From the NCBI GenBank assembly GCA_048498995.1, contig JBEHWX010000014.1, positions 8,921-72,920 on the forward strand: a DNA stretch of 64,000 nt, read 5' to 3'. The notes under the pieces were generated by a model that saw nothing but the letters and a program-made list of their open reading frames with translations, had not been told where the DNA came from and ran no database searches. The stretch comes from Bacteroidota bacterium. Its GTDB lineage: Bacteria; Bacteroidota; Ignavibacteria; OLB7. The translations under genes and the position numbers were made by a program. This document shows positions 5,252-64,000 of this stretch, one piece after another. Numbering within the stretch: position 1 is the first letter of the stretch; the number at the start of each line of letters is the position of its first letter.

Positions 5252-10519
<5,268 letters not shown>

Positions 10520-35209: not shown

Positions 35210-36535
35210 ATGCGGGCGGGAAGGGGCTTGCCATGTCGTGTCGTCCAACTTCATCGCATGCACCACACTATGCCACGTAAGCGAATTGGCGATATCAGCG
35301 AGAGCCTGGAGTTTCTCAGGCGCCTCGAAAATCACTATCGCCGTCAGCCTCAGGAGGTCCGAATCCGAGCATTGCGCATTCTTCGCGAGCATCCCGGGAT
35401 GAGAATCAGGGATGTCGCCGTCAGAGCCGAATGCTCCGAAAGCTCCGTTCAGCGATGGTGGGATCTCTACCGTCGCAACGGGATCGCCGCCGTTATCGGC
35501 GCTACTCGACTGCCAGCCATGTTGACCGATTCCGAGCGGGTCGAGGAGCTGCGCCGCATTCTTCGCCGGGATGACGGGGCGCGAAGTCAGTCCGCGTCGG
35601 GCGAGGCTCGCCTGCCGGTCTCACCATTCCTCTCCGATCTCGCCGGCCACGTTCCGGTTGGCCATGTCCCGGCGGGCAATCATCCGGCCGGAGACCGAAC
35701 CGTCCATGACGTGGCGGCACCCGGTCGCGAGCTGCCGGACGCCGCGCCGGCACGCGCGACCATTCTCGAGTTTCTCCGTTCCCTGCCGGCCGCCGGCGGG
35801 ACCCGTCAGTGGCTCGAAACGTTCCGTGAGGCGCTGCGCGGCATGCTCTACTGCGTGGACCGGGTGACGGTGAGCCTGAACGTCGAATGTGATGTCAGGA
35901 ATCCCGACAGTTATGCTCCCGGAATCGTGGTGGCGCAACAGGTTTCAGATCAGATGGAGCCGGCCAGCGTCATCACCTCCATGCCGCGCCCCGGAGGTGC
36001 CGGCATCGCCTCCCGCTTCGTCGGCGAGCTTCGCCGGCGCGGCCTCGCCGTCGACAGTTACCAGCCGCCGGTCGAGCTGCATTACTACATCAACGGTACC
36101 GCGTATCTGGGGACCATCATCCTCTGGCGGGAGGCGCGCATGCCGGCGATACCGGAGCGGACGCTCGCGTTGATGCGGGATCTGGAGCCGATGATCGTGG
36201 TGCTACTCTCCGACTGCATCGCGCGGCACCAGCGGGCGTGTCCGCTCGATCGGGCGTTCAACGGCGCGCTCCGCAGGTTGATACAGGAGGCGGGCCTCAC
36301 CGACCAGGAGGCGCGCATCGCCCTGATGCAGCTTCATGGCCGCTCCTACAAGGAGATCGCCGATCTGCTCGATATTTCGCTCGACACCGTCGGCAAGCAC
36401 ATCAATTCCATTCACCGCAAGACGCGCACGAGGGGGCATGCCGAGCTGTTCGCCAAGTATTTCACGAAATCGCTGGGTGGCGGTTTCCTGACAGCCGACG
36501 TGTCAGGTTCCACCGGACCTTCCAGAAACCTGTAG
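35210..36535 (+). CDS. LuxR-family transcriptional regulator with an N-terminal transposase-like HTH
   Basis: The C-terminal LuxR HTH reads LTDQEARIALMQLHGRSYKEIADLLDISLDTVGKHINSIHRKT. The N-terminus reads RIRDVAVRAECSESSVQRWWDLYRRNGIAAV, which is IS630/HTH_23-like. The start may be the ATG at 35270. It lies immediately upstream of the sheath array. Confidence 0.65.
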   Translation: MRAGRGLPCRVVQLHRMHHTMPRKRIGDISESLEFLRRLENHYRRQPQEVRIRALRILREHPGMRIRDVAVRAECSESSVQRWWDLYRRNGIAAVIGATRLPAMLTDSERVEELRRILRRDDGARSQSASGEARLPVSPFLSDLAGHVPVGHVPAGNHPAGDRTVHDVAAPGRELPDAAPARATILEFLRSLPAAGGTRQWLETFREALRGMLYCVDRVTVSLNVECDVRNPDSYAPGIVVAQQVSDQMEPASVITSMPRPGGAGIASRFVGELRRRGLAVDSYQPPVELHYYINGTAYLGTIILWREARMPAIPERTLALMRDLEPMIVVLLSDCIARHQRACPLDRAFNGALRRLIQEAGLTDQEARIALMQLHGRSYKEIADLLDISLDTVGKHINSIHRKTRTRGHAELFAKYFTKSLGGGFLTADVSGSTGPSRNL

Positions 36536-37043
36536 TTGTTTCCCTTGCCCTCACGGGACTAGATTGCAACCGTTCGATTCGGCGTCCACCCGCGTGGTGG
36601 GCGCCGGGTCGCCACATCACCAGATATCCGCAGCGAATCCGTTGCACGAGCTTCATCAAGGGCGCCAGACGCGCCGCGACCGGGAATGAGATCCGGGGAG
36701 CAGTATTCGAGATCGATACGCGCCGGACATCCGAAGCGCCACCGCGCACACCGCGATAACAACAATTGAACAGCAGGCTCCGATCACGGAGCTCACGCCG
36801 GACGACGATGGCGCATGGGACCTGCGCGCATCGATCGTCGGATTTCCAACCGTTGGACGAGAGCGTTGGATTTCCCGTCGTCGGAATTTTCCGTGTCTGA
36901 GCTTCCGTCGCGCGGCATGATGCGCCTGCGGAGCAGGCTCACGCCCATGGCCGGGCAGGCATTATCGGAACGAGATTTCGGTTTCTCTCACACACATACA
37001 CCATCAGATCACCGACTGCAACCAGTACAAGGAGAACATTGCA

Positions 37044-38588
37044 ATGCCAGTCACACCAACATATCCGGGCGTCTACATCGAGGAGCTCCCGAGCGGCGTA
37101 CGGACCCTGATCGGCGTCGGCACGTCGATCACGGCCTTCGTCGGCCGCGCGCTCCGCGGCCCGGTCGATGAGCCGGTTCTGATCCACAGCTACGGCGATT
37201 TCGAGCGCACCTTCGGCGGCCTCTGGACCAAGAGCACCATGAGCTATCAGGTGCGCCAGTATTTCCTCAACGGCGGCTCGGACGCCATCATCGTCCGTAC
37301 CGTCGGCGCCTCGGGCACCCTCGCCGCCTTGTACGCGGCTCCGGCCCCCGCCGGAACCCTGACGATCTCCGCCGTCTCCCCCGGTGCCTGGGGCAACAGC
37401 GTGAAGATCAGCGTCGACAAAACCAATCTGATCGACATGGCCGACGCCGATCTGTTCCACCTGTATGTTACCGAGGTGGATCCGACCGACACGACCAAGA
37501 CCGTCAAGTACGAGCCCTTCTATAACGTCTCGGTCAATCCTGTTTCCCCCCGTTACATCGTGAAGGTCCTCGAGAACGAGTCGACGCTCGTGCGCGCCAC
37601 CGGAACGATCCCGGCCGACGCTCCGAATGCGCTTGCGTATACTTTCCTTGCCAGCGGCGCCGACGGTGCCGTGCTGACGGCGACCGAGGTGATCGGCAAC
37701 TCGGGGAACAAGACCGGCATGTACGCGCTCGAGAAGGCCGACCTGTTCAACATCCTCTGCCTGCCGCCGACGCTCAACGGCTCGGACGTTCTGGTCGACA
37801 TCGACACGGCCAGCTGGGGCGCCGCCCAGACCTATTGCAAGAAGCGTCGCGCCGTCGTGCTGATCGATCCGCCTGCGGCGTGGGACACGCTCGCCGAGGT
37901 GTACAACACGCCGGGCTTCACCAGCCTCAGCATCGCCGATGAGAACTCGGCCTTCTACTGGCCGTGGGTGGTGGTCTCCGATCCGCTGAAGGGGAACCAG
38001 CCGCTTTCGATCGCCCCGTGCGGCACGGTCGCCGGCGTGATTGCCCGCACCGATGCCGACCGCGGCATCTGGAAAGCTCCGGCCGGCATCGATGCCAACC
38101 TCGTCGGCGTTCAGTCGCTGGCCGTGAAGGTCACCGACGCCGAGAACGGCCAGCTCAACCCGCTCGGCGTGAACGTGCTCCGCACGCTGCCGGCCGCCGG
38201 CAACGTGGTCTGGGGCGCCCGCACCACCAAGGGTGCCGATCGCCTTGCCTCCGATTGGAAGTACCTGCCGGTGCGCCGTCTGGCCCTCTACATCGAGGAG
38301 AGCCTGTATCGCGGCACGCAGTGGGTCGTCTTCGAGCCGAACGACGAGTCGCTCTGGGCTCAGATCCGCCTGAACGTCGGTGCCTTCATGCACCAGCTCT
38401 TCCGCCAGGGTGCCTTCCAGGGCGCCAAGCCGTCCGAGTCCTACTTCGTCAAGTGCGACAAGGAGACCACCACGCAGAACGACATCAACCAGGGCGTGGT
38501 CAACGTCATCGTCGGCTTCGCGCCGCTGAAGCCGGCCGAGTTCGTCATCATCAAGCTCCAGCAGATCGCCGGGCAGATCGTCGCCTAA
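37044..38588 (+). CDS. Contractile tail sheath protein (eCIS/Afp2-4-like), paralogue S1
   Basis: An AGGAGA RBS precedes the N-terminus MPVTPTYPGVYIEELPSGVRTLIGVGTSITAFVG. The middle carries YALEKADLFNILCLPP. The C-terminus reads DWKYLPVRRLALYIEESLYRGTQWVVFEPNDE...FVKCDKETTTQNDINQGVVNVIVGFAPLKPAEFVIIKLQQIAGQIVA. Confidence 0.9.
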   Translation: MPVTPTYPGVYIEELPSGVRTLIGVGTSITAFVGRALRGPVDEPVLIHSYGDFERTFGGLWTKSTMSYQVRQYFLNGGSDAIIVRTVGASGTLAALYAAPAPAGTLTISAVSPGAWGNSVKISVDKTNLIDMADADLFHLYVTEVDPTDTTKTVKYEPFYNVSVNPVSPRYIVKVLENESTLVRATGTIPADAPNALAYTFLASGADGAVLTATEVIGNSGNKTGMYALEKADLFNILCLPPTLNGSDVLVDIDTASWGAAQTYCKKRRAVVLIDPPAAWDTLAEVYNTPGFTSLSIADENSAFYWPWVVVSDPLKGNQPLSIAPCGTVAGVIARTDADRGIWKAPAGIDANLVGVQSLAVKVTDAENGQLNPLGVNVLRTLPAAGNVVWGARTTKGADRLASDWKYLPVRRLALYIEESLYRGTQWVVFEPNDESLWAQIRLNVGAFMHQLFRQGAFQGAKPSESYFVKCDKETTTQNDINQGVVNVIVGFAPLKPAEFVIIKLQQIAGQIVA

Positions 38589-38616
38589 CCACCAACTCCA
38601 GCAAGGACAGTAAACA

Positions 38617-40215
38617 ATGCCTACTACACCAACGTATCCTGGCGTGTATATCCAGGAAATTCCGAGCGGCGTCCGGAGCATTTCGGGAGTCGGCACCTCG
38701 ATCACCGCTTTCATCGGCCTCGCGCTGCGCGGCCCGATCGACGAGCCGACGCTGATCCACGGCTACGGCGACTTCGAGCGGATCTTCGGCGGCCAGTGGA
38801 TCAACAGCGGCATGTCGTACTCGGTGAAGCACTACTTCCAGAACGGCGGCTCCGATGCCTTGATCGTGCGCATCATCCCGTCGAACGCCATCAAGGGGAA
38901 GACCGATCTCGACGCCGGCTCGAGCACGAAGGTGACGCTCGTGGCGGCCAACGAAGGGGCCTGGTACAAGAACATCTACGCGACGGTCGACTACAACGTG
39001 AACGTGTCGAACACCGATCCGACCTACGGCAAGGTGTTCAACCTGACGATCCGTGAGTATCTGACCAATCCGAACACCGACGCCAACGCGGTGCTGGTGC
39101 GCGAGGAAGTGATCCGGAATATCTCGGTGGACGCGACGGCGGCACGGTACATCGGCACGGTGCTGGCCAACGAGTCGTCGCTGGTGCGGTTCGATCCGGC
39201 CTCGACGGCGACGGTCAAGCCGTTGGCGGTGACCAATCAGGCGGTTGTCAGCGGCACTCCGGGGTCCGACGGCACGATTGCCAACGCGACGGTGACCGGC
39301 ACGAACTACACGACCGGCAAGCGGGGCCTGTACGCACTGGACAAGGCGGACTTGTTCAACATGCTGGTTCTGCCGCCGCTGACCCGTGACTCGGGGGGAG
39401 TCTGGACGGATGTTGCCAACAGCCTCGACGCGACCAACGGGGCGATCTGGAGCACGCTGATCTCGTACGCCAAGTCGCGCCGGGCCGTGGTGATCGTCGA
39501 TCCGGCCACCACCTGGACCAGCGTCTCCGCGGCGCAGTCCGGTGTTGCCGCGATGAGCCTCGCGCAGGAGAACGCGGCGATCTATTTCCCGCAGATCACC
39601 GTCGCCGACCCGCTTCGTGGCAACACGCTCGAGAATTTCGCGCCGTCGGGCGCGGTTGCCGGCGTGATCGCCCGCACCGACGCCGAGCGTGGCGTCTGGA
39701 AGGCTCCGGCCGGTCTCGACGCCCGTCTCGTCGGCGTCGCCAAGCTCTCGCAGTCGCTGACCGACGGCGAGAATGGCAGCCTGAATCCGCTCGGCATCAA
39801 CGTGCTCCGCACGCTTCCGGCGGCGGGCAACGTGGTCTGGGGCGCCCGTACCATGCGCGGTGATGATCGCCTGGCTTCCGACTGGAAGTACCTGCCGGTG
39901 CGCCGTCTGGCCCTCTACATCGAGGAGAGCCTGTATCGCGGCACGCAGTGGGTCGTCTTCGAGCCGAATGACGAGCCGCTCTGGGGACAGATTCGTCTGA
40001 ATGTGGGTGCGTTCATGCACCAGCTCTTCCGCCAGGGTGCCTTCCAGGGCGCCAAGCCGTCCGAGTCCTACTTCGTCAAGTGCGACAAGGAGACCACCAC
40101 GCAGAACGACATCAACCAGGGCGTGGTCAACATCATCGTCGGGTTCGCTCCGTTGAAGCCGGCCGAGTTCGTCTTCATCAAGCTCCAGCAGATGGCTGGT
40201 CAGATCGTCTCGTAA
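38617..40215 (+). CDS. Contractile tail sheath protein, paralogue S2
   Basis: MPTTPTYPGVYIQEIPSGVRSISGVGTSITAFIG; the 3' ~370 nt are ~95% identical to S1; central region divergent. Confidence 0.9.
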   Translation: MPTTPTYPGVYIQEIPSGVRSISGVGTSITAFIGLALRGPIDEPTLIHGYGDFERIFGGQWINSGMSYSVKHYFQNGGSDALIVRIIPSNAIKGKTDLDAGSSTKVTLVAANEGAWYKNIYATVDYNVNVSNTDPTYGKVFNLTIREYLTNPNTDANAVLVREEVIRNISVDATAARYIGTVLANESSLVRFDPASTATVKPLAVTNQAVVSGTPGSDGTIANATVTGTNYTTGKRGLYALDKADLFNMLVLPPLTRDSGGVWTDVANSLDATNGAIWSTLISYAKSRRAVVIVDPATTWTSVSAAQSGVAAMSLAQENAAIYFPQITVADPLRGNTLENFAPSGAVAGVIARTDAERGVWKAPAGLDARLVGVAKLSQSLTDGENGSLNPLGINVLRTLPAAGNVVWGARTMRGDDRLASDWKYLPVRRLALYIEESLYRGTQWVVFEPNDEPLWGQIRLNVGAFMHQLFRQGAFQGAKPSESYFVKCDKETTTQNDINQGVVNIIVGFAPLKPAEFVFIKLQQMAGQIVS

Positions 40216-40505: not shown

Positions 40506-42116
40506 ATGCCCCTTCCGACATCATATCCCGGCGTATACGTTCAGGAATTGCCCAGCCAGTCCCGCGCGATCGCTCCGGTGGGAGCCACCATCACCGCGTT
40601 CATCGGACAGGCGATGCGGGGCGAGATGAACAAGCCGACGCTGATCAACGGCTTCGGCGATTACGAGCGGATCTTCGGCGGCCTCAATTATCTGAGCACG
40701 ATGAGCTACGCCGTCCGCGATTATTTCCTCAACGGTGGGTCGAACGCGGCGATCGTGCGTGTCGGCACGACGGCCGGATATACCTGGCGCAAGGGGCTTA
40801 CACGTCTGCCGACGTCGGATGCCCTGCAGTATCTCTTCCTGGAAGCGAAGTCCGAGGGAGCGTGGGTCAACAAGTGCATCGTCAGCGTCAGTTGGACTAC
40901 CTCCAATCCGAGCGATACCAACCTGTTTTCGCTCATCATCAAGGAATATTCCTATACCCATGCCGACTACGCCGATGTGGTCAACGACCCGGTGGTCGGG
41001 CAGGAAACTATCTACAATCTTTCGATCGATCCGAGCTCTCCCCGGTACGTCGTCAACGTGCTCGAGCAGGAGTGCGAGCGTCTGCGGGTTCAACCCGGAT
41101 CGACCGTTCCGACCGTGCGCCCGACGGCGTCGTCGTATCTGAATTTCAACCTCCGAACCGGTGTCGATGGCGTCGCGGCCGACGTGGATTATCTCGGCGA
41201 TTCCGTGCTGAAGAAAGGGATCTACGCGCTCGACCTCCTCGATCGTTTCGATGTTCTCTGCATTCCGCCGATCACGCGCGTGACGACCGGCGGCACCGGC
41301 AATGACGTCGGGCTTTCCACGTGGCAGGCGGCGCTGGCCTACTGCAAGCAGAGGCGCGCCATGCTCGTGGTCGATCCTCCGGCGTCGTGGACCAGCGTAT
41401 CGGCGGTTACCAACGCCACGACCGGCATCGACGGATCGTCCGGATCGAGCTACAAAAGTCTGCGCGATGAGAACGCGCTGATCACGTTCCCGCGCGTCTA
41501 CGCATCTGATCCGCTCAGCGCCAACCGCCTCGATCTCTTTGCCGCGTGCGGGGCCGTCGCCGGCGTCATCGCCGGCACCGATGGCAAGCGCGGCATCTGG
41601 AAGGCTCCGGCCGGACTCGATGCGCGCCTCGTCGGCATCTCCACCCCCGCGGTCAGGATGACCGAAGCGGAGATCGGCACGCTCAACCCGCTCGGCGTGA
41701 ACGCCATCAGGACCATGCCGGGGGCGGGCGTGGTGCTGTGGGGCTCGCGCACGCTGGAGGGAGCCGATCGCCTTGCCTCCGATTGGAAGTACCTGCCGGT
41801 GCGCCGTCTGGCCCTCTACATCGAGGAGAGCCTGTATCGCGGCACGCAGTGGGCCGTCTTCGAGCCGAACGACGAGCCGCTCTGGGGGCAGATCCGTCTG
41901 AACGTTGGAGCGTTCATGCATCAGCTCTTCCGCCAGGGTGCGTTCCAGGGGGCCAAGCCGAGCGAGGCCTATTTCGTCAAATGCGACCAGGAGACCACCA
42001 CGCAGAACGACATCAACCAGGGGGTGGTCAACGTTATCGTCGGCTTCGCGCCGTTGAAGCCGGCCGAGTTCGTCATTATCAAGCTCCAGCAGATCGCCGG
42101 GCAGATACTATCGTAA
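40506..42116 (+). CDS. Contractile tail sheath protein, paralogue S3
   Basis: MPLPTSYPGVYVQELPSQSRAIAPVGATITAFIG; conserved C-terminal block identical to S1/S2 family; it is preceded by a ~290-bp spacer. Confidence 0.9.
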   Translation: MPLPTSYPGVYVQELPSQSRAIAPVGATITAFIGQAMRGEMNKPTLINGFGDYERIFGGLNYLSTMSYAVRDYFLNGGSNAAIVRVGTTAGYTWRKGLTRLPTSDALQYLFLEAKSEGAWVNKCIVSVSWTTSNPSDTNLFSLIIKEYSYTHADYADVVNDPVVGQETIYNLSIDPSSPRYVVNVLEQECERLRVQPGSTVPTVRPTASSYLNFNLRTGVDGVAADVDYLGDSVLKKGIYALDLLDRFDVLCIPPITRVTTGGTGNDVGLSTWQAALAYCKQRRAMLVVDPPASWTSVSAVTNATTGIDGSSGSSYKSLRDENALITFPRVYASDPLSANRLDLFAACGAVAGVIAGTDGKRGIWKAPAGLDARLVGISTPAVRMTEAEIGTLNPLGVNAIRTMPGAGVVLWGSRTLEGADRLASDWKYLPVRRLALYIEESLYRGTQWAVFEPNDEPLWGQIRLNVGAFMHQLFRQGAFQGAKPSEAYFVKCDQETTTQNDINQGVVNVIVGFAPLKPAEFVIIKLQQIAGQILS

Positions 42117-52143: not shown

Positions 52144-53681
52144 TGGCTGATTTCTTCTCCCGGCTCGCCGAACGGACGCTCAGCGTCGCCCCGGTGGCCG
52201 AGCCCACGGTCGGATCCCTCTTCTCGTCGACGAATCTCTTTTCCGAAGGCTCGGCCGGCCTGGCCCAGGCTCCGGAGCAGGGATTCATCGACGAGCCCGC
52301 GGGGGCTCTCGATGAACCGATCGAACGGGATGATCCTCCGGCGGCCGATCCGCGGCCGCGCCAACCCGCCACGTCTCGTCCGGCCGATGCCGCGATCGGA
52401 GACCGGCGTGGAGCGGCGCCGGATATACAGCCGGATATGCCGGCTCACCGGCCCGCCGCTCCCTCGGTGAGTGCCGGCGACCCGGATGCATCCGCGAGCT
52501 CGATCGCCAGGGGGAATATCGATGCCGCGAACGATCGCGACCGCGCCTCGGACGCGAATGACGGCGGATACGCGACGCTTCTTCCGGAGCGTCCGCTCGC
52601 CGGCATCGACGTCGCGGGCGTGGAGGCTCCCTTCACCGCCGGCCCGCCGGCCGGGGAGGTGGAGGAGCATGAGAACGACGAAAGGACGACGACCACGAAT
52701 GAATCGAATCACGATGACGATGTAACGACGCGGCATTCCGCGCTGGGTGCGGCAGAGGACGCGACACACCGGCGGCCGGCTACGCCGGAAGCACCTGGGA
52801 GCGACGTCGAACGGACGCTGCTCCCGAGAAAGCCCACCACAGCGAGGACGCCCTGGTGGTCCTCCCCGAACGATGCGGCACCACCGGATTCCGGTGAGCC
52901 GCGCGGATCGGCGCACGCCGATCCGGATGCGTCGGGGGGGATCGCCAGTAGGCGTGACCAGCCGGATGACGATCCGCGTCGCGATGTCGCTCACGATGTC
53001 GCGCGCGACGCGGGACGTGGCGATGCGCCGTCGCTCCTTCCGGCTACCCCCGCCGGCGATCGTGCCGGGATCGGAAGCTCCCACGACGATGCCCCGCGGG
53101 GACGCTCCGAGGAGCGGAGCTCCGCGGCCGACGAGGGAAGCGTGGGGAATGGGAGATCCGCCCGTGGCGGAGACGCTTCCCGCGCCATCCGCGTGGAGCC
53201 ATCGTCCGAGCGGATGATGCGGTATGAAGGCGAGGAGCCCGGCGGCAGGGGCGCGACATCCGATCGTGGGGAGAGCTCGGGTACGCGATCGGCGAGGGGG
53301 AGCCAGCCGGCGCGCGGCGCGCGCATTCATCAGGTCGAGGCACGCGCCGATCGCGGTACGACGGAATCGGACGGGGGATCTCCCGCGAGGAGATCATCGG
53401 AAGCGGCACGCCAGCTGGTTCCGACACCACCGGGACAGCTTACGCCGATCCGCTCCACGGAGCGGGCCGAGGGGGAGCGATCCCGTAGAGATCATCACGC
53501 TCAGGCACAGCCGCAACCGCAGGCGCCGTCGCCGATCAAGGTGTCGATCGGCCGCATCGAGGTCAAAGCGGTGATGCAGACACCACCGGCGCAGCAGACG
53601 CGCCAGGCTCCCCAGCAGGGGTCGAGCCCGATCCTCACATTGGACAACTACTTGCAACAGCGGAATGGGAGAAGTCGATGA
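52143..53681 (+). CDS. Intrinsically disordered Asp/Arg/Ser/Ala/Pro-rich protein (candidate tape-measure analogue or cargo), hypothetical
   Basis: The 513-aa product is low-complexity throughout. A short structured-looking C-terminus reads KVSIGRIEVKAVMQTPP...LTLDNYLQQRNG. It is translationally coupled to both neighbours. Confidence 0.4.
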   Translation: MADFFSRLAERTLSVAPVAEPTVGSLFSSTNLFSEGSAGLAQAPEQGFIDEPAGALDEPIERDDPPAADPRPRQPATSRPADAAIGDRRGAAPDIQPDMPAHRPAAPSVSAGDPDASASSIARGNIDAANDRDRASDANDGGYATLLPERPLAGIDVAGVEAPFTAGPPAGEVEEHENDERTTTTNESNHDDDVTTRHSALGAAEDATHRRPATPEAPGSDVERTLLPRKPTTARTPWWSSPNDAAPPDSGEPRGSAHADPDASGGIASRRDQPDDDPRRDVAHDVARDAGRGDAPSLLPATPAGDRAGIGSSHDDAPRGRSEERSSAADEGSVGNGRSARGGDASRAIRVEPSSERMMRYEGEEPGGRGATSDRGESSGTRSARGSQPARGARIHQVEARADRGTTESDGGSPARRSSEAARQLVPTPPGQLTPIRSTERAEGERSRRDHHAQAQPQPQAPSPIKVSIGRIEVKAVMQTPPAQQTRQAPQQGSSPILTLDNYLQQRNGRSR

Positions 53682-54934
53682 GTAATTACCTGGCAATTGC
53701 TACCGTCACGGCATGCCTGAAACAATTGCTGCAACCCGCGGCCACGTCATTCAACGGATCGCCGGTCACGGTGCTCCGGCCGGATCTGATCGCCGGCAGC
53801 GGCAATTCGGCCGGTGTCAACGTCTACATGTACCAGGTGATGCCCAATACCGCCTGGCGCAATGAAGACCTTCCGGCGCGCCGCTCCGACGGTCAATTGA
53901 TCACGCGTCCGCGCGTGGCGCTCGATCTGTACTATATCATCAGCTGCTATGGTCCGGACAACGAGTTCGCGCCGCAGCGCATGCTCGGCAATGTCGTCAA
54001 GATCATGCACGAGACGCCGGTGCTCACCCGCGATTTCGTGCAGGATACAGTCAGCAGCACCAGCTATGTAAGCGGCTCCGATCTGATGAACGAGATCGAG
54101 CTGGTCAAATTCACGCCGACGGCGATGTCGACCGAGGAGATATCGAAGCTCTGGGCGGCGTTTCAGACCACGTACCTCGTTTCGGTGGTCTATCACGGCA
54201 CCGTGGTGCTGATCGACAGCAGCATGGACCCCACGCCGGCGCTCCCGGTTCGCAGCAGAAACCTCTACGTCGTTCCGTTCAATCAGCCGATCATCGAGCG
54301 TGTCCTCTCCGCCGATGGCCTCGGCGTGCCGATCGACGCATCGAGCACCGTGCTCATCAAGGGGAAGGGGCTTCGGGGGGATCCCACCGCGTCCACCAAG
54401 GTCCGTGTCGCCGGCACCGAGGTGGTGCCCGATCAGCTCAACGATCAGCAGATCACGGTGGACTTCACTTCGGTGCTGTTGGCCGGCTACCTGCGCGCCG
54501 GCGTGCAGGGCATTCAGGTGGTGCAGCCCCGCCTGATCGGAACCCCGGCGGTCGACCACACCGGCGTCGAGTCGAACGTGGTGCCGTTCGTGCTTCATCC
54601 GAAGATCACCGCCCTTAGCGCCACCAATTACTCCGGAACGGCGATGTCGCGCACCTGCGATATCACCCTCACGATCTCCCCCGTCGTCGGAAAGACCCAG
54701 CGCGTGATTCTCTTCCTGAACGAGATGACCGATACCGATCCGAAGTTCTACAGCTTCGTGGTACCGGACCGCGGCTCCGATTCCAGCACGATCACCGTCC
54801 ACGTCACCGGCGTGAAGGGAGCCTGGTATATAGTCCGCGTTCAGGTCGACGGCGCGCAGAGCCTCCTCGAGGAGGACACCGATCCGTTGAATACCACGCA
54901 CACGATGCCGAAGCTCGAGATTCTCGCGAGCTGA
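53678..54934 (+). CDS. Tail terminator/cap protein (Afp16/Pvc16-like, DUF4255) - tentative
   Basis: The N-terminus MSNYLAIATVTACLKQLLQP resembles eCIS cap proteins. The product is 418 aa with an Ig-like C-terminal region, and the gene has an ATGA overlap. Confidence 0.45.
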   Translation: MSNYLAIATVTACLKQLLQPAATSFNGSPVTVLRPDLIAGSGNSAGVNVYMYQVMPNTAWRNEDLPARRSDGQLITRPRVALDLYYIISCYGPDNEFAPQRMLGNVVKIMHETPVLTRDFVQDTVSSTSYVSGSDLMNEIELVKFTPTAMSTEEISKLWAAFQTTYLVSVVYHGTVVLIDSSMDPTPALPVRSRNLYVVPFNQPIIERVLSADGLGVPIDASSTVLIKGKGLRGDPTASTKVRVAGTEVVPDQLNDQQITVDFTSVLLAGYLRAGVQGIQVVQPRLIGTPAVDHTGVESNVVPFVLHPKITALSATNYSGTAMSRTCDITLTISPVVGKTQRVILFLNEMTDTDPKFYSFVVPDRGSDSSTITVHVTGVKGAWYIVRVQVDGAQSLLEEDTDPLNTTHTMPKLEILAS

Positions 54935-55230
54935 TCCGCCGATCGCCTCCCGTCCCGCACCTCCATCGGGTCCCATCAGGACTTGACGGGGAGCGGGGGG
55001 AGGACAGGGATCGTGGCTGTCGAATCCGATGCCAGTCGATCATGAAATGGACCCGGCGGACCGGAGACGATGTCGGCGAGCGCGCCACGCGGCCGCGTTC
55101 CTCGATCGCTCCGGTCCGTCCGCTCCGTCGATGATCGTCGGCATGGGCGGCGGGTCGGCATGGAAACGAGCAACCTTCACGTCGCGCGCGCGGGCGGCGC
55201 CATCATCATCTCTTCACTCATCATCCTGGC

Positions 55231-57200
<1,970 letters not shown>

Positions 57201-57210
<10 letters not shown>

Positions 57211-57569
57211 ACGGACTGGCGGGCGATCGCGCCGAAAGCCGCGGCGCGGTCGACACGCCCGCTCCGGATGCTCAGGTCCATCCGTCGAATCCGGCGCCGG
57301 CCGCCGCCTCCGATGCGTCGCGGCCGATCGAGCTCCACATCGACGAGCTGGTGCTGGAGGGATTCTCCGGCGTCGATCGCGATCTGGTGGGAGACGCGCT
57401 ACGTCGTGAGCTCACCAGGCTCCTCTCCTCCGGCTACGCGCCGGACTCCCTGAAGGAGGCGGGGGAGATGGCGCGGATCAACGGCGGCAGCTTCATCGTC
57501 CGCAAGGGAATGCATCCCGAAGAGATAGGGAAACAGATCGCGAGGTCGATTTTCTGGGGAATGAGATGA
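57201..57569 (+). CDS. Hypothetical small protein downstream of the ATPase
   Basis: The 122-aa ORF overlaps the ATPase stop by 10 nt and has no motifs. Confidence 0.35.
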
Positions 57570-58747
57570 GAGAATGTTTCTCTGCGGAGGGGCCGGAGAA
57601 GAGGGGACGCAACATTTTCGAGATCGATGATGGGAGCATCGCGAGCAATATGTCTCTCGACGACGAACGGGATTGTGTTGGCCGTACGAAGTAGATCCCA
57701 GCGGGCTAACGAAAGCAACCATCAGCGACGATACCGCCTGAATGTGTGAGAAGCAGGAAGCGGGCGCTGGCGCGGCTGAGGACGCGGTTTGCGGGAATCT
57801 ACGGGAAGCCCCGAACAGCTCCCACGCGAGCATGGGCCTTGCGAAACGGAACCGGAATATTCCCATGCCATCGACCTCGGAATTGCCGAAGCATGCGGTC
57901 CATGCCACAACAGCGACAATGTGGTGATCCTCGCATGGTCGAGCGAGCGCCGCAAGGTTGGCCTGATGGACCGTTCTTCCACGGAGCTCCCGCGGTGACG
58001 GCAGCATGAGAACAGGTCCGGCTTCACCCTGATTTCGAGTCACCGCCGCGTCCATCGATGTAACCATCGGCAGCGCCGGTACCGTCCGGAGCGCTGGGAA
58101 ATTTCTGTCGGCGTGGTCCCGACGCGCGTGGACTATTCCGTGAATCTGGGATATGGAGAGGCTCATCGGCGATGTCCGGGCCGCCGAATATTCCGACCCA
58201 TCGTCGGTGGCCGAGGAGAATCTGGAGCAGGCCGACGTTGAGCTTGACATGGAGTGCCGCGATGCGTATACTTGTCGACGACACATCCACGACGCCGCGG
58301 AATCACTCGAAATGATCGATCGCAACGCAGAATGCGCGCACGCGCCGCTGTTGTCCGGAGTGGACCGAGGGCCACGACCGACACCCGACAGTGCCTGCGA
58401 ACGGCGCCCGGAGCTCATCGAGCTCGATCGTCCACACCAGGGCGCATGTGTCAGACCACAACGCACGAATTCACTCGATGATGTCGCATTGACGGCTCAG
58501 CGACGACGCGCCGCCGCCAACCTCCGGAGCTTCGTCACGCAACGGGCCTTCGCGAGGAACGCGAGGTAGGGATCGCGAGCCCGCCTCGATCGCAACGAAG
58601 CGCGCGCCGGAGAACGCCGGAGATGCCGGCGCCGATGCGGCCGATCATCCCTCTTGCCGGTTCACGCACCGGTCACGGCACGGAGCGCGCGTGCCGGCAC
58701 CAGAACGAGTTTCGCTCAGAACTACCACACGTGGGAGTCTTCACACC

Positions 58748-59395
58748 ATGTCCAGTTTTCCAGGTTCACCACAACTGATGAAGGGGGCTCTCGTCGGCAT
58801 CGATGCAACGAGCCAGAAGGCGAGCACCATCAAGTTTCAATACAACCCGATGGAGCTCACCCGATCGCTCCAGGCACAGACGGCGACCGAAGGGGGAAGT
58901 CGCGCCGAGATCCTTCGACTGAAGGGGGCTCCGGTCGAGACGATCAGCCTCAAAATCGATATCGACGCCACCGATCAGCTCGAGGAGGCGGGGGGAACCG
59001 CGACCACGCTCGGCATCCATCCGCAGCTGGCCGCGCTCGAGCTGCTGGTCTATCCCAGCACGACGCGAGTGATCACCAACCAGAAGCTTCTGGCCGTCGG
59101 CACGATCGAAGTGATTCCGTACGCGGCGCCGTTCACCCTCTTCATCTGGGGAAAGAGCCGCGTGCTGCCGGTCCGCCTGTCCGACTTCAGCATCACCGAG
59201 CAGTATTTCGATTCCAACCTCAACCCGATCCGCGCCGAGGTCTCGCTCAATCTGCGGGTGCTCTCCTACAACGATCTTCCGTTCTCGCATCCCGGGAACG
59301 CGCTGTTCATCGCGCATCAGGTCGCAAAGGAAGCCTTCGCCGCCAGCGCGGGCTCCGGAACGGTCTCCACGCCGGCATCACTCTTATTCAAGTAA
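58748..59395 (+). CDS. Tube-like / tube-initiator-like baseplate protein (Afp5/Afp7-like) - tentative
   Basis: The 215-aa product begins MSSFPGSPQLMKGALVGIDATSQKASTIKFQYNPMELTRSL. Its position immediately before the LysM/tail-X, hub and spike genes is consistent with a baseplate protein. Confidence 0.4.
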   Translation: MSSFPGSPQLMKGALVGIDATSQKASTIKFQYNPMELTRSLQAQTATEGGSRAEILRLKGAPVETISLKIDIDATDQLEEAGGTATTLGIHPQLAALELLVYPSTTRVITNQKLLAVGTIEVIPYAAPFTLFIWGKSRVLPVRLSDFSITEQYFDSNLNPIRAEVSLNLRVLSYNDLPFSHPGNALFIAHQVAKEAFAASAGSGTVSTPASLLFK

Positions 59396-59412
59396 GCAGG
59401 GAGGCATTGTTC

Positions 59413-59721
59413 ATGTTCGATTCAACCAGTCGCTACGCTTCGATCGAAATCGCCTCGCGCAACGTGACCGGGAGTGATGGCGTCTTCCGCGAAGTCCGCT
59501 ACGTCCGCCGACGTTTCATTCCGTCGGCCAAGAATTATTCGGTCCTCCAGGAGCACAACGTGATCCTCGGCGATCGTCTCGACAACGTGACTGCCGATTA
59601 TTTCGGCGACCCGACCCAGTTCTGGATGATCTGCGACGGCAACGAGGCGATGAATCCGTTCGATCTCGTCTCCCGTCCCGGAACGACGCTCGAGATCCCG
59701 GTTCCTCAATTCCAGGTTTGA
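59413..59721 (+). CDS. LysM-like / phage tail protein X domain protein
   Basis: An AGGGAGG RBS precedes VLQEHNVILGDRLDNVTADYFGDPTQFWMICDGNEAMNPFDL, which matches the tail-X/LysM consensus (GD.L..IA..YYGD...W.I..AN...NP..L). Confidence 0.5.
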   Translation: MFDSTSRYASIEIASRNVTGSDGVFREVRYVRRRFIPSAKNYSVLQEHNVILGDRLDNVTADYFGDPTQFWMICDGNEAMNPFDLVSRPGTTLEIPVPQFQV

Positions 59722-59723
59722 CA

Positions 59724-60881
59724 ATGAACTTAACAGGTATACAACTGACGCTCATGGTCGGGCCCACGATCGCGGTGCCGGCGCCGGCCGTGCTCTCCGA
59801 GTCGATCGAGAGCGTGGAGGTGACGCATGCCGACGGCCGCGAGCGATCGGGATTTCAGATTACGTTCCAGGTCGGCCGGAACGGCCCGGCCGATGTGATC
59901 GATTTCGTGCTGATGTCGAACGCGATGCTGAAAGTATTCAACCGCGTCGTGCTCGTGGTCACCTTCGGCGCCAAGCCGCAGGTGCTCTTCGACGGGATCA
60001 TCACCAATCAGCAGCTCACCCCAGGCTCGGCGCCGGGCGAGTCGAAGCTGACGATCACCGGCGAGGACGTCAGCATCATGATGGATCGCAAGGAGATGAA
60101 CGAGGAGCATCCGGCCCAGCCCGAGGCGATCATCGCCTTGAAGCTGATCGCCAAGTACGCGCAGTACGGGATGATCCCGAAGGTGATTCCGCCGGTGAGC
60201 TTCGACGTGCCGATTCCGATCGAGCGGATCCCGGTGCAGCGCGCCACCGATCTGCAGTATATCAAGCAGATGGCCGAGCGGTTCAATTACACGTTCTACG
60301 TCACGCCGGGGCCGGTGCCGCTGACCAACACCGCCTATTGGGGGCCACGCATCAGGGTGGGGGTGCCGCAGCCGGCGCTCTCGGTCAACCTCGGATCGGA
60401 GACGAACGTGGAGTCGATCAACTTCGCGTACGATGGCCTGAAGCCACGCATCATCAAGGGAAAATTCCAGGATCGACAGACCAACAAGAAGCTGCCGGTG
60501 CTCGGCCTGATCAGCACGATCATCCCGATCGTGCCCTTCCCCGCGCTGCTGGTCAATTATCCGAACGCTGAGATGAAGCTCCCCGATCCCTCCGAGGATC
60601 TCGGCGGCAAGAACACGCTGCAGGCCACCGCGCGCGCCATCGCGAAGGTGAACGAATCGGCCGAGGAAGTGGTCTCCGCCAGCGGCGTGCTCGATGCCGC
60701 CCGCTACGGGAATATCCTTCATCCGCGCGGGCTGGTCGGTCTGCGTGGCGCCGGCTTCAACAACGATGGTCTGTACTATGTCAAGAGCGTCACGCACTCG
60801 ATCAAGCGTGGCGAGTACAAACAGCGATTCACCCTGACGCGTGAAGGGTACGGGTCGATTACACCAGTGGTGAGGCCATGA
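59724..60881 (+). CDS. Baseplate hub protein (phage late control gene D / gp27-like)
   Basis: About 385 aa, the same size as P2 gpD. It sits directly upstream of and translationally coupled to the gpV spike. A TTG at 59718 is an alternative start. Confidence 0.5.
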   Translation: MNLTGIQLTLMVGPTIAVPAPAVLSESIESVEVTHADGRERSGFQITFQVGRNGPADVIDFVLMSNAMLKVFNRVVLVVTFGAKPQVLFDGIITNQQLTPGSAPGESKLTITGEDVSIMMDRKEMNEEHPAQPEAIIALKLIAKYAQYGMIPKVIPPVSFDVPIPIERIPVQRATDLQYIKQMAERFNYTFYVTPGPVPLTNTAYWGPRIRVGVPQPALSVNLGSETNVESINFAYDGLKPRIIKGKFQDRQTNKKLPVLGLISTIIPIVPFPALLVNYPNAEMKLPDPSEDLGGKNTLQATARAIAKVNESAEEVVSASGVLDAARYGNILHPRGLVGLRGAGFNNDGLYYVKSVTHSIKRGEYKQRFTLTREGYGSITPVVRP

Positions 60882-61435
60882 GCACAGCAACCAGTTCATC
60901 AAACGGCGCCGCCTCGCAGTTCGGCGGCTCGGCCATGGGGCCCAGATATTTCGGCAAGTATCGCGGCACGGTCGCCAGCAACCTCGATCCGTTGCAGCTC
61001 GGGCGCATCCAGGTTTCCGTTCCCGCCGTTCTCGGCGACGGACGGCTGAGCTGGGCGCTCCCCTGCATGCCCTACTCCGGCAAGAACGAGGGCTTCTTCG
61101 CGCTTCCGCCGGTCGGCACGAATATCTGGGTCGAGTTCGAGGGGGGCGATCCCGACAGCCCGATCTGGGCCGGCTGCTTCTGGGATGTCGGAGAGGTTCC
61201 CGCTTCTCCCGCGATCCAGCAGATGAAGGTGATCCGCACCGAATCCATCACGATGACCATCAGCGATGTTCCGGGTGCCGGCGGATTCACCCTCGAAGTC
61301 GGGCCTCCGGCCGTTGCCACGCCGCTGAAGATGACCTTCGATTCCTCCGGCATCGAGTTGAAGAACGGCGCGGCGAGCGTGAAGCTCACCCCCGCGAGCG
61401 TGTCGGTCAACAACGGCGCGCTGGAGGTGATCTGA
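60878..61435 (+). CDS. Baseplate spike protein (gpV / gp5 / VgrG-N OB-fold family)
   Basis: The sequence YRGTVASNLDPLQLGRIQVSVPAVLGDGRLSWALPCMPYSGKNEGFFALPPVGTNIWVEFEGGDPDSPIWAGCFW is the classic Phage_base_V signature. Confidence 0.8.
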   Translation: MSTATSSSNGAASQFGGSAMGPRYFGKYRGTVASNLDPLQLGRIQVSVPAVLGDGRLSWALPCMPYSGKNEGFFALPPVGTNIWVEFEGGDPDSPIWAGCFWDVGEVPASPAIQQMKVIRTESITMTISDVPGAGGFTLEVGPPAVATPLKMTFDSSGIELKNGAASVKLTPASVSVNNGALEVI

Positions 61436-61767
61436 TGCCGGGCATGCTCGTTCACGTCGGCGCCACGATCCTCTGTCCGCATGCCGGACAGGCCTCGGTG
61501 GTCTCCTCCAATACACGGGTCATGGTCAGCAATCAGTTCGTCGCCCTCGTCGACGACAATTATCCGATCGCCGGCTGTCCGTTCGTGCTCGGCAACACGC
61601 CACATCCGTGCGTGAAGATTCAATGGCTCGTGCCGGCAACACGGGTCTTCGTCAACAAGAAGCCGGTGATCCTCCAGTCGAGCTCCGGGCTTTGCCTGGC
61701 CGCCGATCAGGCGCCGCAGGGGCCGCCGAACATCGTGATGACGCAGCTTCGCGTGAAGGGGATGTGA
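61435..61767 (+). CDS. PAAR-like spike tip protein (DUF4280 type)
   Basis: The 110-aa product reads GATILCPHAGQASVV...CPFVLGNTPHPCVKIQW. It follows gpV with a 1-nt overlap. Confidence 0.65.
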   Translation: MPGMLVHVGATILCPHAGQASVVSSNTRVMVSNQFVALVDDNYPIAGCPFVLGNTPHPCVKIQWLVPATRVFVNKKPVILQSSSGLCLAADQAPQGPPNIVMTQLRVKGM

Positions 61768-61814
61768 GCCCACGCCGCGCGGTTCAACACCACAGCAAAC
61801 GTCGAGACGAGACA

Positions 61815-63086
61815 ATGCAGAGATTTCAGATCCGCCATCGGGTGGAGCACCTGCTCCGTCCGCACATGACGATTCTCGGGCACCGGTTCCCGGCGTTTCA
61901 CCTCTGCGGGTACGCCGGGCTTCTTCTGATGGCCGCCACCATGCTGGCCCTGACAGATCTGCGTGGGCTTTCGCTCGCGATCACGGCCGGGCTTCTGCCT
62001 CTCGCGGCCGTGATCTTTCTCGGCTCGGCGATGCTTTCCAAGATTCTGACCGGCGTGGAGCAGATCGTCTACTATCGCATCCAGATCGCCATCGTTGCCG
62101 TCGCGGCGCTTCTGCTCCGGTTGATCGGCGCTCCGGTGGGAGCCTATCTGGATCTGTTGATACTGGGGATCGGCGCCTTCACCGCCGCCGGAAGGATCGG
62201 ATGCCTGATGGTGGGATGCTGCCACGGCACGCCGAGCCGGAACGGCATCTGCTATCACGACCGTCATGCACGCGAGGGATTTCCGCGCGCGCTGGTCGCG
62301 GTGCCGCTGATTCCGGTGCAGCTCGTGGAATCTCTCTGGGTGGCGCTCGTCGTTGCCGTGGGAATCGCCATGCTGCTCGCCGGCAGCGGAGCCACGGGCT
62401 CCGTGGTCGCATGGTATACGATCGCGTATGGGGTCGGGAGGTATTTCCTCGAATTCCGTCGGGGCGATCCGGAGCGTCCGTATCTCCTCGGCATCTCCGA
62501 GGCGCAGTGGACATCGCTGGCGACGATCGGAGTCGTCATCGCGGCGGAACAGATGGGGCTTCTCGCGCCGATCGCGTGGCATGCGCTGCTGTTCGGTCTG
62601 CTTCTGCTCCTCACGGCCGGCGTCATTGTCGGCAGGGCCACGTCGGACGCCGATTTCCGGTTCCGTCAGCCGAGGCACATCATCGAGCTCGCCCGCGCCA
62701 TCCGCGCGATCGATGCCGAGGCGCTGCTCGTCGAGGCGGGAGGGGAGCGGAGGAGCGGCGGAATTCCGGCGCGAACCACGTCCGAGGGAATGACGATCTC
62801 CACCAGCATCACCAGCGATCCCTGGCGACGAACCTATCACTATGCGTTCTCGAGCATCGGTGGGGCGATTGCTCCGCGTGACGCACAAGAGCTTGCGCGG
62901 CTGATACAGCTTCTTTCCGGCCATCCGGGATATGTGGAAGTGATCGAGGGGAGAGGAGGGATTCATCATCTCCTGATCCAGTCGGCGCGCGCCACACCCG
63001 AGCGTGAGGTCGAGGAGGGATTTTCCGTGATATCCGCAGAGCAGGGAGTATCACGGATGTCGGGAATGTCGGTCGCGCGCCGATAA
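61815..63086 (+). CDS. Polytopic membrane protein with Lgt (prolipoprotein diacylglyceryl transferase)-like signature plus ~140-aa soluble C-terminal domain
   Basis: It has ≥6 predicted TM helices. The sequence GRIGCLMVGCCHG resembles Lgt G-R-I-G-N-F-I-N-G-E. The sequence YGVGRYFLEFRRGDPERP matches the Lgt Y..G..RF..EF.R.PD signature. It is embedded between the PAAR and gp25 genes. Confidence 0.45.
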   Translation: MQRFQIRHRVEHLLRPHMTILGHRFPAFHLCGYAGLLLMAATMLALTDLRGLSLAITAGLLPLAAVIFLGSAMLSKILTGVEQIVYYRIQIAIVAVAALLLRLIGAPVGAYLDLLILGIGAFTAAGRIGCLMVGCCHGTPSRNGICYHDRHAREGFPRALVAVPLIPVQLVESLWVALVVAVGIAMLLAGSGATGSVVAWYTIAYGVGRYFLEFRRGDPERPYLLGISEAQWTSLATIGVVIAAEQMGLLAPIAWHALLFGLLLLLTAGVIVGRATSDADFRFRQPRHIIELARAIRAIDAEALLVEAGGERRSGGIPARTTSEGMTISTSITSDPWRRTYHYAFSSIGGAIAPRDAQELARLIQLLSGHPGYVEVIEGRGGIHHLLIQSARATPEREVEEGFSVISAEQGVSRMSGMSVARR

Positions 63087-63589
63087 CCGTGATCGAGGCT
63101 GTCCGCGCGCCGTCGCGCGGTCCGGAAGGAAGCGGCGTGCCCGGAGATGGCATGTCTTGCGGCTGCGCGCCTGGATTTTTCGCGGCTCGCCGTGGACGGC
63201 GTTGGCCATGTGCATGGAGAACGCCGGGCTTCGAGGAGCCGGTATAAAAAAATGCGCCGCATCCGGTTCACCACAACGACGGCCGCCGTATATTCGTGCC
63301 CATTCACGGCGCCACGCGCTTCACGCAATCGTTCGCGCCTCGAATTTTCAGCACCTCATCCCGATCGTCGGGTTTCCCGGGCGCCACGCCCGCCAGACTC
63401 CACCGCCGCCTCCTGACCACGGCGCGCACATGAGATATTCGATGCCGGCCCTTCACCGCCGGCGTGGGGAATAGCGGAGGGGAACGTCGGTCCAGTTGAA
63501 TGCGAGCATCAATGTCGCGACCGATGTCGGCAGCTCGCCGTTGAACGCCACAACCGAGTCAACTTTTCATACAACATTCGGGTACTCCG

Positions 63590-63946
63590 ATGCAAATCGA
63601 TTATCCATTCAAGCTGGACGGATTGGGGCGCACCACCCTCACCGACCAGAATGATCACATACGTGACATGATTGAACAGGTGCTTTTCACGACGCCCGGG
63701 GAGCGTGTGAATCGGCCGACCTTCGGCTGTGGGCTTCTGCAGCTCGTCTTCGGACCGAACAGCGATGAGCTCGCCACCACCACGCAGTTTCTCGTGCAGG
63801 GTGCGTTGCAGCAGTGGCTCGGTGACATCATCCAGCTTCAGCGCGTGGAGGTCAGCAGCCGTGACTCCCTGATCGAGGTGGTCGTGGCGTACGTGGTGCG
63901 CCGCACCCAGCAGAGCCAGGTCGCGAAAATCACACGGGAGGTCTGA
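63590..63946 (+). CDS. Baseplate wedge protein gp25/GPW family (Afp9-like)
   Basis: The sequence IRDMIEQVLFTTPGERVNRPTFGCGLLQLVFGPNSDE is the canonical GPW_gp25 motif. The product is 118 aa. Confidence 0.8.
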   Translation: MQIDYPFKLDGLGRTTLTDQNDHIRDMIEQVLFTTPGERVNRPTFGCGLLQLVFGPNSDELATTTQFLVQGALQQWLGDIIQLQRVEVSSRDSLIEVVVAYVVRRTQQSQVAKITREV

Positions 63947-63947
63947 T

Positions 63948-64000
63948 ATGACGGTACAAAATTTCTGTCCGAACGAGCGCCGTCGCGATCTGGTCAAATC
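63948..64000 (+). CDS. 5' end of the next baseplate gene (probably baseplate J/gp6-like), partial
   Basis: An ATG lies 2 nt after the gp25 stop (MTVQNFCPNERRRDLVK...). Its identity is inferred from gene order only. Confidence 0.3.
   Translation, partial: MTVQNFCPNERRRDLVK

Follow-up and report, generated by a model that had tools for sequence, protein, structure and literature searches.

Could a single contractile lattice assemble from many interchangeable sheath subunits, and what role would the outer surface of such a particle play? Contractile sheaths are usually taken to be homopolymers, or a trunk complemented by two adaptor paralogs as in Afp and PVC. The question is raised by eight intact sheath paralogs encoded in a 64,000-nucleotide stretch of DNA from a Bacteroidota bacterium (Ignavibacteria; OLB7), comprising positions 8,921 to 72,920 of the forward strand of contig JBEHWX010000014.1 (assembly GCA_048498995.1) and hereafter called the window. 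Judged by its family matches, its lineage II gene order, and the absence of head and lysis genes, the locus is a chromosomal contractile injection system (CIS) of the Afp/PVC superfamily, lineage II. The eightfold array is its clearly unusual feature; in its architecture it is an ordinary lineage II member. The reading we prefer, at a probability of roughly 0.6, is a functional injection system whose sheath would be built of several co-assembling paralogs.

Eight Sheath Genes in One Locus

The window is GC-rich (62-69%), and long spurious open reading frames (ORFs) are therefore abundant; genes were picked by codon-position GC together with family searches. All genes of the locus, from position 35210 onward, lie on the plus strand. 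The array comprises Sh1 (37044..38588; 514 aa), which has an AAGGAG ribosome-binding motif upstream, Sh2 (38617..40215; 532 aa), Sh3 (40506..42116; 536 aa), Sh4 (42273..43850; 525 aa), Sh5 (43878..45443; 521 aa), Sh6 (45474..46988; 504 aa), Sh7 (47138..48715; 525 aa), the most divergent copy, and Sh8 (49002..50555; 517 aa), which adjoins the tube gene. The sheath families PF04984 and PF17482 were both matched in all eight ORFs, with the Pfam cut-offs cleared by seven of the eight. Every copy is full-length and retains all 84 invariant columns of a 27-sequence family alignment. At the protein level the paralogs are 39-62% identical pairwise (39-50% for Sh7 against the others), an identity too low for strain variants. 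The same array order is present in a second assembly, whose contig begins inside the array, and the order Sh6-Sh7-Sh8 recurs in six independent metagenome contigs.

Such a number of sheath genes is exceptional among relatives. In 80 genome loci, defined by related sheaths and drawn from species-representative genomes of many phyla, a sheath profile found one sheath gene in 74, two in 5, and three in 1. A further 80 loci from metagenomes contain one in 76 cases and two in 4, two of these four resembling frameshifted single genes. The combined 160 related loci comprise 150 with a single sheath, 9 with two, and 1 with three, against eight in this window. The best genome match for the sheath is a Kapaibacterium assembly in which one sheath gene is seen, on a 5.1-kb contig; an exact look-up of the Sh1 sequence retrieved no record. 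A preliminary description of this DNA, made from the sequence alone, had counted eight sheath genes; the count is borne out, while its standing as a true outlier had gone unrecognized. In the literature searched, multi-sheath arrays beyond three genes are not described, the systems there having one sheath (AlgoCIS, the Anabaena system, Streptomyces) or three (Afp, PVC).

Independent assemblies break within the conserved C-terminal part of the sheath (the starts of contigs L007 and L096-L101, at window positions ~38406 and 46745). Short-read metagenome assembly is therefore likely to break up multi-sheath arrays of this kind and to undercount them.

A Conserved Core and a Variable Insert

Divergence among the paralogs is unevenly distributed along the protein. 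Over residues 1-89 in Sh1 numbering, mean pairwise identity is 0.56 for the eight paralogs, 0.61 for Sh1-6, and 0.76 for orthologues from other genomes (the best matches to Sh1). The corresponding values drop to 0.28, 0.28, and 0.44 over residues 90-222, recover to 0.52, 0.56, and 0.66 over residues 223-395, and reach 0.74, 0.90, and 0.87 in the C-terminal 119 residues (396-514). The variable stretch, an insert of ~135 residues, lies outside both Pfam sheath domains. An AlphaFold2 (AF2) model of Sh1 (pLDDT 77) has as its best fold matches the sheaths of Halogeometricum borinquense (9EZM) and Streptomyces coelicolor (8BKY). The sheath wall of S. coelicolor Cis2 is made by domains 1 and 2, with a flexible domain 3 at the surface. 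Residues 90-222, a candidate placed by sequence position, probably correspond to this surface domain 3. The paralogs would then probably have the wall in common and differ mainly in the part predicted to be exposed.

Synonymous positions point to gene conversion confined to the C-terminal assembly region of Sh1-6. Third-position synonymous identity among these six copies is ~0.42-0.5 over most of the gene, near the expectation from the bias in GC content at third codon positions (GC3), and rises to 0.63-0.79 in the last 90 codons. Long exact nucleotide matches accompany this rise, spanning 120 nt between Sh1 and Sh2 (in the C-terminal region) and 91 nt between Sh1 and Sh3.

Traces of the history of the array are preserved between and within the genes. 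The spacers Sh1-Sh2, Sh4-Sh5, and Sh5-Sh6 (27-30 nt) are homologous, each starting with CCACCAA and holding an AAGGA-like motif; the spacer was therefore part of the duplicated unit. Between Sh7 and Sh8, a decayed relic of a ninth sheath (48790..48965; tblastn E about 1e-6) retains ~60 C-terminal residues with an internal stop and runs in frame into the Sh8 leader. Positions 48902-48944 of this relic are 91% identical to Sh1, and its presence indicates that copies have been both gained and lost in the array. Sh2 groups with Sh5 in 49 of 50 bootstraps, and Sh3, Sh4, and Sh7 form a clade in 48 of 50; on this phylogenetic evidence, Sh2/Sh5 and Sh3/Sh4/Sh7 are robust in-array duplications. In a neighbor-joining tree of 213 sheaths, the point estimate places all eight copies in one exclusive clade.

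Selection could be gauged against variant strains of ~98-99% nucleotide identity, which cover Sh7 and Sh8 among the sheaths. Sh8 shows 14 synonymous differences and 1 non-synonymous difference, and Sh7 differs from a variant strain by 14 synonymous and 6 non-synonymous changes, with no indels and an intact gene. From this synonymous excess, both copies are kept by purifying selection.

Sh4 is distinct in base composition. Its GC of 0.594 and GC3 of 0.73, the minimum of the array compared with 0.85-0.89 in Sh1, Sh2, and Sh8, cause a GC dip at 42-44 kb and may reflect a different expression level or history.

Gene Content and Order of a Lineage II System

A single set of tube, cap, ATPase, and baseplate/spike genes, identified by family matches and synteny, is encoded beside the eight sheath genes. 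For each of the eight core subunit types that Chen et al. 2019 name (Afp1/5, 2/3/4, 7, 8, 9, 11, 15, and 16), a candidate is present, the Afp7 match alone being weak. The locus opens with a LuxR/GerE-type regulator (35210..36535; 441 aa) that carries an N-terminal HTH_23/HTH_28 region (Pfam GerE E 3e-7, HTH_23 E 5e-10); GerE-domain regulators have been reported beside such operons (Geller et al. 2021). After the array comes the inner tube gene (50869..51396; 175 aa, gp19/Afp1-like, PF06841 E 2e-45), followed by a 244-aa PF12322 (T4_baseplate) protein (51409..52143). This protein, whose CxCxxC...CxxC cysteines make an earlier Zn-ribbon reading reasonable, follows the tube gene in 73 of the 80 genome loci and is a conserved tube partner. 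A disordered 512-aa protein rich in A, R, P, S, G, and D (52143..53681; no family match) separates it from the cap or tail terminator (53678..54934; 418 aa, Afp16/Pvc16-like, PF14065 (Pvc16_N) E 4e-42) and the Afp15-like AAA+ ATPase (55231..57210; 659 aa, PF00004 E 2e-25 and a PF22977 winged helix). The small conserved protein next to the ATPase (57201..57569; 122 aa) has same-position homologues in 18 related loci and in locus L094.

Beyond an ORF-less stretch lies the baseplate and spike block. It begins with a second tube-like protein of the CIS_tube family (58778..59395; 205 aa, PF19266 E 7e-10), a tube initiator candidate that matches Afp7 weakly (E 0.43). Next is a 102-aa protein with weak resemblance to gp53/LysM-like baseplate proteins (59413..59721; PF11246 E 0.005), whose position is kept in 17 loci. 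Afp8 is represented by two halves. The gp27/gpD-like hub (59754..60881; 375 aa) lacks a Pfam match of its own and is assigned by homology to the same-position Phage_GPD protein in L093 (30% identical, E 6e-43), and the gp5/gpV half (60878..61435; 185 aa) is the OB-fold of the spike (PF04717 (Phage_base_V) E 2e-21). A PAAR-like spike tip (61435..61767; 110 aa), recognized by a weak DUF4280 match and its conserved position, is followed by an Lgt-family polytopic membrane protein (61815..63086; 423 aa) and by the gp25-like baseplate wedge/sheath initiator (Afp9; 63590..63946; 118 aa, PF04965 E 3e-17). At its end the window holds the opening 16 codons of the first Baseplate_J (Afp11-like) gene (63948..64000). 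Nothing useful came from PDB sequence searches with the cap, hub, and PF12322 proteins.

The first Baseplate_J gene was read further in a contig of GCA_048498215.1 (L001), which is 99.98% identical to window positions 53590-64000 and extends 10 kb further. After gp25, L001 encodes two Baseplate_J proteins (999 and 907 aa; PF04865 E 3e-7 and E 4e-5), the first of which matches S. coelicolor Cis11 in 9GTP (E 4e-15), then a 712-aa protein with faint phage-tail similarity and a 1260-aa DUF6519 protein (E 2e-62). A 2026 catalogue of injection-system fibers lists DUF6519 as eBAP5, a baseplate-anchor domain of tail fibers (PMC12923769). The preliminary description had guessed that fiber and large wedge genes would lie downstream, and L001 supplies them.

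Nearly every item of the gene list in that description, from LuxR to gp25, was recovered at or near its given position by the family searches. Its choice of a CIS over a prophage tail or pyocin also stands: the Pvc16_N cap and the AAA+ ATPase are present and match the Afp16 and Afp15 families, and neither the ORFs scanned across the 64 kb nor the 10 kb past the window yielded a capsid, portal, terminase, integrase, or holin family. Two of its statements go too far. Most genes had been described as translationally coupled, and overlaps occur at just 5 of 21 gene junctions. The gene order, once called atypical or reversed, is the standard lineage II order seen in related loci of many phyla. When the proteins of the locus were mapped onto the 80 genome loci, the order sheath, tube, PF12322 protein was recovered in 73-75 of them, with cap and ATPase next wherever the flank reaches (57-58 loci). 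Then follow, in fewer loci with longer flanks, a variable-length slot, the second tube-like gene, the 102-aa gene, hub, spike, PAAR, gp25, and two J genes.

Within lineage II, a split afp8 and a doubled afp11 have been described for subtypes IIa and IIc, PAAR (afp10) is lacking solely in IIb, and divergent afp12/13 genes occur in IIa and IIb (Chen et al. 2019). The locus displays the IIa/IIc traits of afp8 as two ORFs, two afp11 copies, and afp10. By gene content, from which the subtype was called, it looks most like IIa, with a split hub/spike, two Baseplate_J genes, PAAR, and a downstream fiber gene.

The ORF-less stretch of 1.2 kb (57570..58777) occupies the slot that holds DUF4157 and cargo genes in relatives. 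A minus-strand 339-aa ORF within it was rejected as a gene on account of its junk-like S/R/A-rich translation and lack of homologues, and no remnant of DUF4157 or of a cargo gene was found in the gap. DUF4157 (eCIS_core) has been ranked as a core domain of extracellular contractile injection systems (eCIS) (Geller 2021). It was detected neither by tblastn of 35-64 kb with DUF4157 proteins of relatives nor in Pfam scans that included the downstream contig, and it could lie further out.

Comparison with Known Systems

The lineage II eCIS of Chen et al. 2019 and dbeCIS resemble this locus in gene order, split hub/spike, two Baseplate_J genes, GerE regulator, and DUF6519 fiber gene. They differ from it in having one sheath gene rather than eight, whereas here the slot is empty, DUF4157 was not found, and an Lgt-family gene lies between PAAR and gp25. 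The closest solved sheath by sequence is that of the S. coelicolor CIS (8BKY, 8BL4, 9GTP; E 4e-77). The two systems are alike in a three-domain sheath with surface domain 3 (predicted here), a matching Cis11, and no recognizable tape-measure gene; the S. coelicolor CIS depends on the membrane protein CisA, and this locus encodes a polytopic membrane protein. The S. coelicolor system has a single sheath, no fibers, a contiguous Afp8 (subtype IId), and a bitopic CisA, and it is cytoplasmic and tied to cell death, whereas this locus has eight sheaths, a fiber gene, a split Afp8, and an Lgt-like polytopic protein.

Known precedent for multiple sheath paralogs per particle is provided by Afp2/3/4 and Pvc2/3/4 of lineage Ia, which have the C-terminal sheath domain in common with this array (E 1e-24 to 1e-47). 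These systems have three paralogs, compared with eight here, and belong to another lineage with another gene order. The Afp and PVC sheath paralogs differ by extra domains that are present in some and absent from others; all eight copies of this array, in contrast, keep one architecture and vary in sequence. Pvc4 has been grouped with Pvc9 as sheath initiators (PMC12210884).

An Inverted Repeat around the Array

The sheath array is precisely flanked by the two arms of a 22-nt inverted repeat. The left arm, GATTTCGGTTTCTCTCACACAC (36974..36995), lies 49-70 nt upstream of the Sh1 start, and the right arm (50724..50745), its reverse complement with 1 mismatch, lies 169 nt past the stop codon of Sh8 and 124-145 nt upstream of the tube gene's start codon. 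The arms are complementary at 21 of 22 positions, occur in exactly two copies in 64 kb, and had no equivalent in 100 shuffles. The right arm is kept in the same orientation in all five variant contigs that cover it (5/5). No comparable inverted repeat was found around the 2-3-copy sheath arrays of six other loci. The repeat might serve as an inversion site, pair into a long-range RNA stem, or act as a shared operator.

Other regulatory signals are sparse. A scan of the array for sigma-70 promoters and terminators returned sites no more numerous than in shuffles, and the Bacteroidota-type promoter motif TAnnTTTG, which occurs solely upstream of the LuxR gene, is present in no intergenic gap of the locus. 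An Rfam scan of 34-64 kb gave one sub-threshold match only.

Proposed Co-assembly of the Paralogs and Rival Explanations

In the reading that we prefer, several paralogs would polymerize on the same tube and baseplate. Sh1-6 would serve as interchangeable trunk subunits, so that the particle has a mixed or diversified exterior, with conversion keeping the Sh1-6 interface uniform while the outer domains differ. The divergent Sh7 and Sh8, which depart from the other copies in their wall regions too, may fill special positions, like Afp3/4 and Pvc3/4 near the baseplate, Pvc4 being the sheath initiator of the comparison above. The Lgt-family membrane protein might link the machine or its cargo to a membrane. 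Firing would proceed from a fiber or membrane signal through a change in the baseplate to sheath contraction and the expulsion of tube and spike. If the paralogs do mix, the outer domain becomes a candidate engineering site, such particles being in development as programmable protein-delivery tools.

Several observations weigh against this reading. Neither a cargo gene nor DUF4157 was found in the available sequence. The Pfam scores of Sh7, 26.5 and 22.7 bits, fall under the curated cut-offs. GC3 ranges from 0.73 to 0.89 among the sheath copies, only Sh1, Sh2, Sh5, and Sh6 have Shine-Dalgarno-like motifs upstream, and gaps of 290, 156, 286, and 313 nt before Sh3, Sh4, Sh8, and the tube gene, respectively, would permit separate regulation. 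The orthologue sample, chosen as best matches to Sh1, is biased toward similarity, and the equation of residues 90-222 with domain 3 follows sequence position rather than residue-level alignment or model coordinates. Monophyly of all eight paralogs is not claimed, since its support is 18 of 50 bootstraps (7 of 50 without the C-terminus) despite the clade in the point-estimate tree, and some sheath copies could come from other loci.

Co-assembly competes with two other explanations of the array. The copies might be alternative sheaths of which only one, or some, are expressed at any time, so that a cell or population switches its particle coat as in phase or antigenic variation, possibly by way of the inverted repeat. 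Such switching would suit a repeat that exactly flanks the array and is unique in 64 kb, long gaps that divide the array into four possible units, ribosome-binding motifs and GC3 that are uneven among the copies, and gene conversion between them. Gene conversion is a hallmark of cassette-type variation systems, a link to this array that we infer. We nevertheless consider alternative sheaths quite unlikely, as there is no recombinase gene in or beside the locus, each of the eight copies has its own start codon, and all share one orientation. Inversion of the whole 13.7-kb block would silence every copy and select none, the right arm has the same orientation in the five variant contigs, and no promoter-like motif is enriched in the gaps. 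Gene dosage offers another account, in which duplicates simply raise the supply of the most abundant subunit and differences between copies would be neutral drift in a domain of no importance. The 61 sheath layers of the S. coelicolor particle do imply a high demand for sheath, the surface domain is the least conserved part family-wide, and the decayed ninth copy indicates that copies can be lost. Dosage receives a similarly low probability from us, given that 150 of the 160 relatives have a single sheath gene, that synonymous sites outside the C-terminus are near chance (~0.45), pointing to old copies that are still intact, and that Sh7 and Sh8 are under purifying selection. The paralogs have, moreover, diverged beyond the orthologues of other genomes in the core as well as in the insert, and pure dosage selection combined with conversion would tend to homogenize whole genes. 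A more elaborate proposal, which we hold to be doubtful, casts the array as a dedicated surface-diversification device with mosaic or switchable coats, the inverted repeat acting as a switch or an RNA-processing signal and the Lgt-like protein as an accessory. Were it correct, mosaic coats might evade recognition, bind different partners, or tune fiber docking.

The site of action is a further point of choice. The machine may work inside the cell, either cytoplasmic or membrane-anchored, with the Lgt-family protein as a membrane adaptor. Among solved structures, its sheath comes closest to Cis2 of S. coelicolor and of H. borinquense (8BKY, 8BL4, 9EZM); the Streptomyces system is cytoplasmic, and the haloarchaeal one has been described as a type six secretion system acting in contact-dependent antagonism. 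Firing in S. coelicolor requires CisA, a polytopic membrane protein is encoded here within the spike/baseplate block, and the locus has no lysis genes for release. These points are countered by the downstream DUF6519/eBAP5 fiber gene, the Streptomyces system being without a tail-fiber-like component, by an architecture of the Lgt-family protein unrelated to that of CisA, and by the location of its homologue among DUF4157 cargo-zone genes, not baseplate genes, in five of six relatives. The fiber gene thus argues for action on other cells from outside, while the solved relatives and the membrane protein leave room for an intracellular or membrane-anchored mode, to which we assign a minority share. 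A defective prophage tail or R-type tailocin would account for the sheath, tube, gp25, J, hub, and spike genes, all common to myovirus tails. It is extremely improbable in view of the Pvc16_N cap and AAA+ ATPase, the scans of the 64 kb and the 10 kb downstream, in which no capsid, portal, terminase, integrase, or holin family turned up, and a gene order that is that of lineage II systems of many phyla.

An Lgt-Family Membrane Protein in the Baseplate Block

The Lgt-like family is a second lead beside the sheath array, and the inverted repeat is also worth following. The PAAR and gp25 genes are adjacent in relatives; here they are separated by the 423-aa gene and a 503-nt gap. The preliminary description correctly recorded a membrane protein at this place and did not identify it as an Lgt-family member tied to such loci. 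The protein matches Pfam LGT (E 3e-19) and scores far below the curated Lgt cut-offs (63.7 vs 334 bits and 39.2 vs 118.9 bits). In fold comparison of its AF2 model (pLDDT 87.6), E. coli Lgt (5AZB) was the sole strong match, and the model carries an extra C-terminal soluble alpha/beta domain of ~100 residues. A weak resemblance of this domain to type III secretion chaperones was set aside as unreliable (probability 0.4-0.6, E above 0.2). The motif GRIGCLMVGCCHGxP (GRIGCLMVGCCHG) is present in 30 aligned homologues with most residues invariant, and Y..GR..EF.RGD is also kept. The first of these motifs stands where E. coli Lgt has GRxGNFxNxExxG, with GRxGNFxNxE as the canonical motif. With scores under the cut-offs and a differing motif, the protein is not a canonical Lgt, its modeled fold being Lgt-like.

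Homologues are found in the company of injection systems. All six whose neighborhoods were checked lie inside such loci (6/6), five of them next to DUF4157 proteins in the cargo zone and one between PAAR and gp25 as here; examples are L093 (10001-11233), L094 (10001-11164), and L182, L183, and L184 (9001-10239). The family comprises 893 cluster representatives at E <= 1e-30. In the enrichment table of Geller et al., LGT is listed twice only and is not enriched, and no link of Lgt to contractile injection was found in the searchable literature. Against variant strains, the protein shows 17 synonymous and 11 non-synonymous changes, consistent with moderate constraint. Membrane anchoring, by analogy with CisA, and lipid modification of a protein of the locus are guesses at its role; if either is right, contractile injection systems would have in this protein an accessory enzyme or anchor not described before.

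Between strains, no stretch varies more than the gap that separates the Lgt-like gene from gp25 (63087-63589), which has 27-28 substitutions in ~556 nt; the adjoining gp25 has none.

Other Genes and Surroundings

Strain variation differs sharply between two further genes of the locus. The PAAR-like protein shows 9 synonymous and 0 non-synonymous changes. The disordered 512-aa protein shows 5 synonymous and 12 non-synonymous changes as well as indels, and is near-neutral and fast-evolving. Only its N-terminal 28 aa are conserved with a distant relative, and its length across loci varies from 236 to 514 aa. Its position between tube and cap makes it a possible candidate for a length or assembly factor.

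Two short sequences recur upstream of baseplate genes. The 13-nt motif GGTTCACCACAAC occurs directly before the second tube-like gene (58758-58775) and again in the 503-nt gap before gp25 (~63262-63280), and GGAGAACGCCGG is likewise common to both gaps. The two may constitute a common leader or regulatory element.

Upstream of 34.4 kb, the window holds housekeeping genes, encoding MetK, AdoHcy hydrolase, a cation efflux protein, a CheB/CheR-PAS hybrid kinase, SCO1, a glycosyltransferase, and FMN reductase. The AdoHcy hydrolase (1563-2840) shares 87-88% identity with proteins that carry the labels Candidatus Kapaibacterium and Chlorobi bacterium, and from this one gene the host, a high-GC bacterium, is probably a relative of Kapabacteria in the Bacteroidota-Chlorobi group. 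Four large ORFs upstream of the locus have no Pfam match. Among the housekeeping genes, ~17 kb upstream of the locus, a 1896-aa ORF (12337-18027) without a Pfam match displays a strong coding signal (GC3 0.91).

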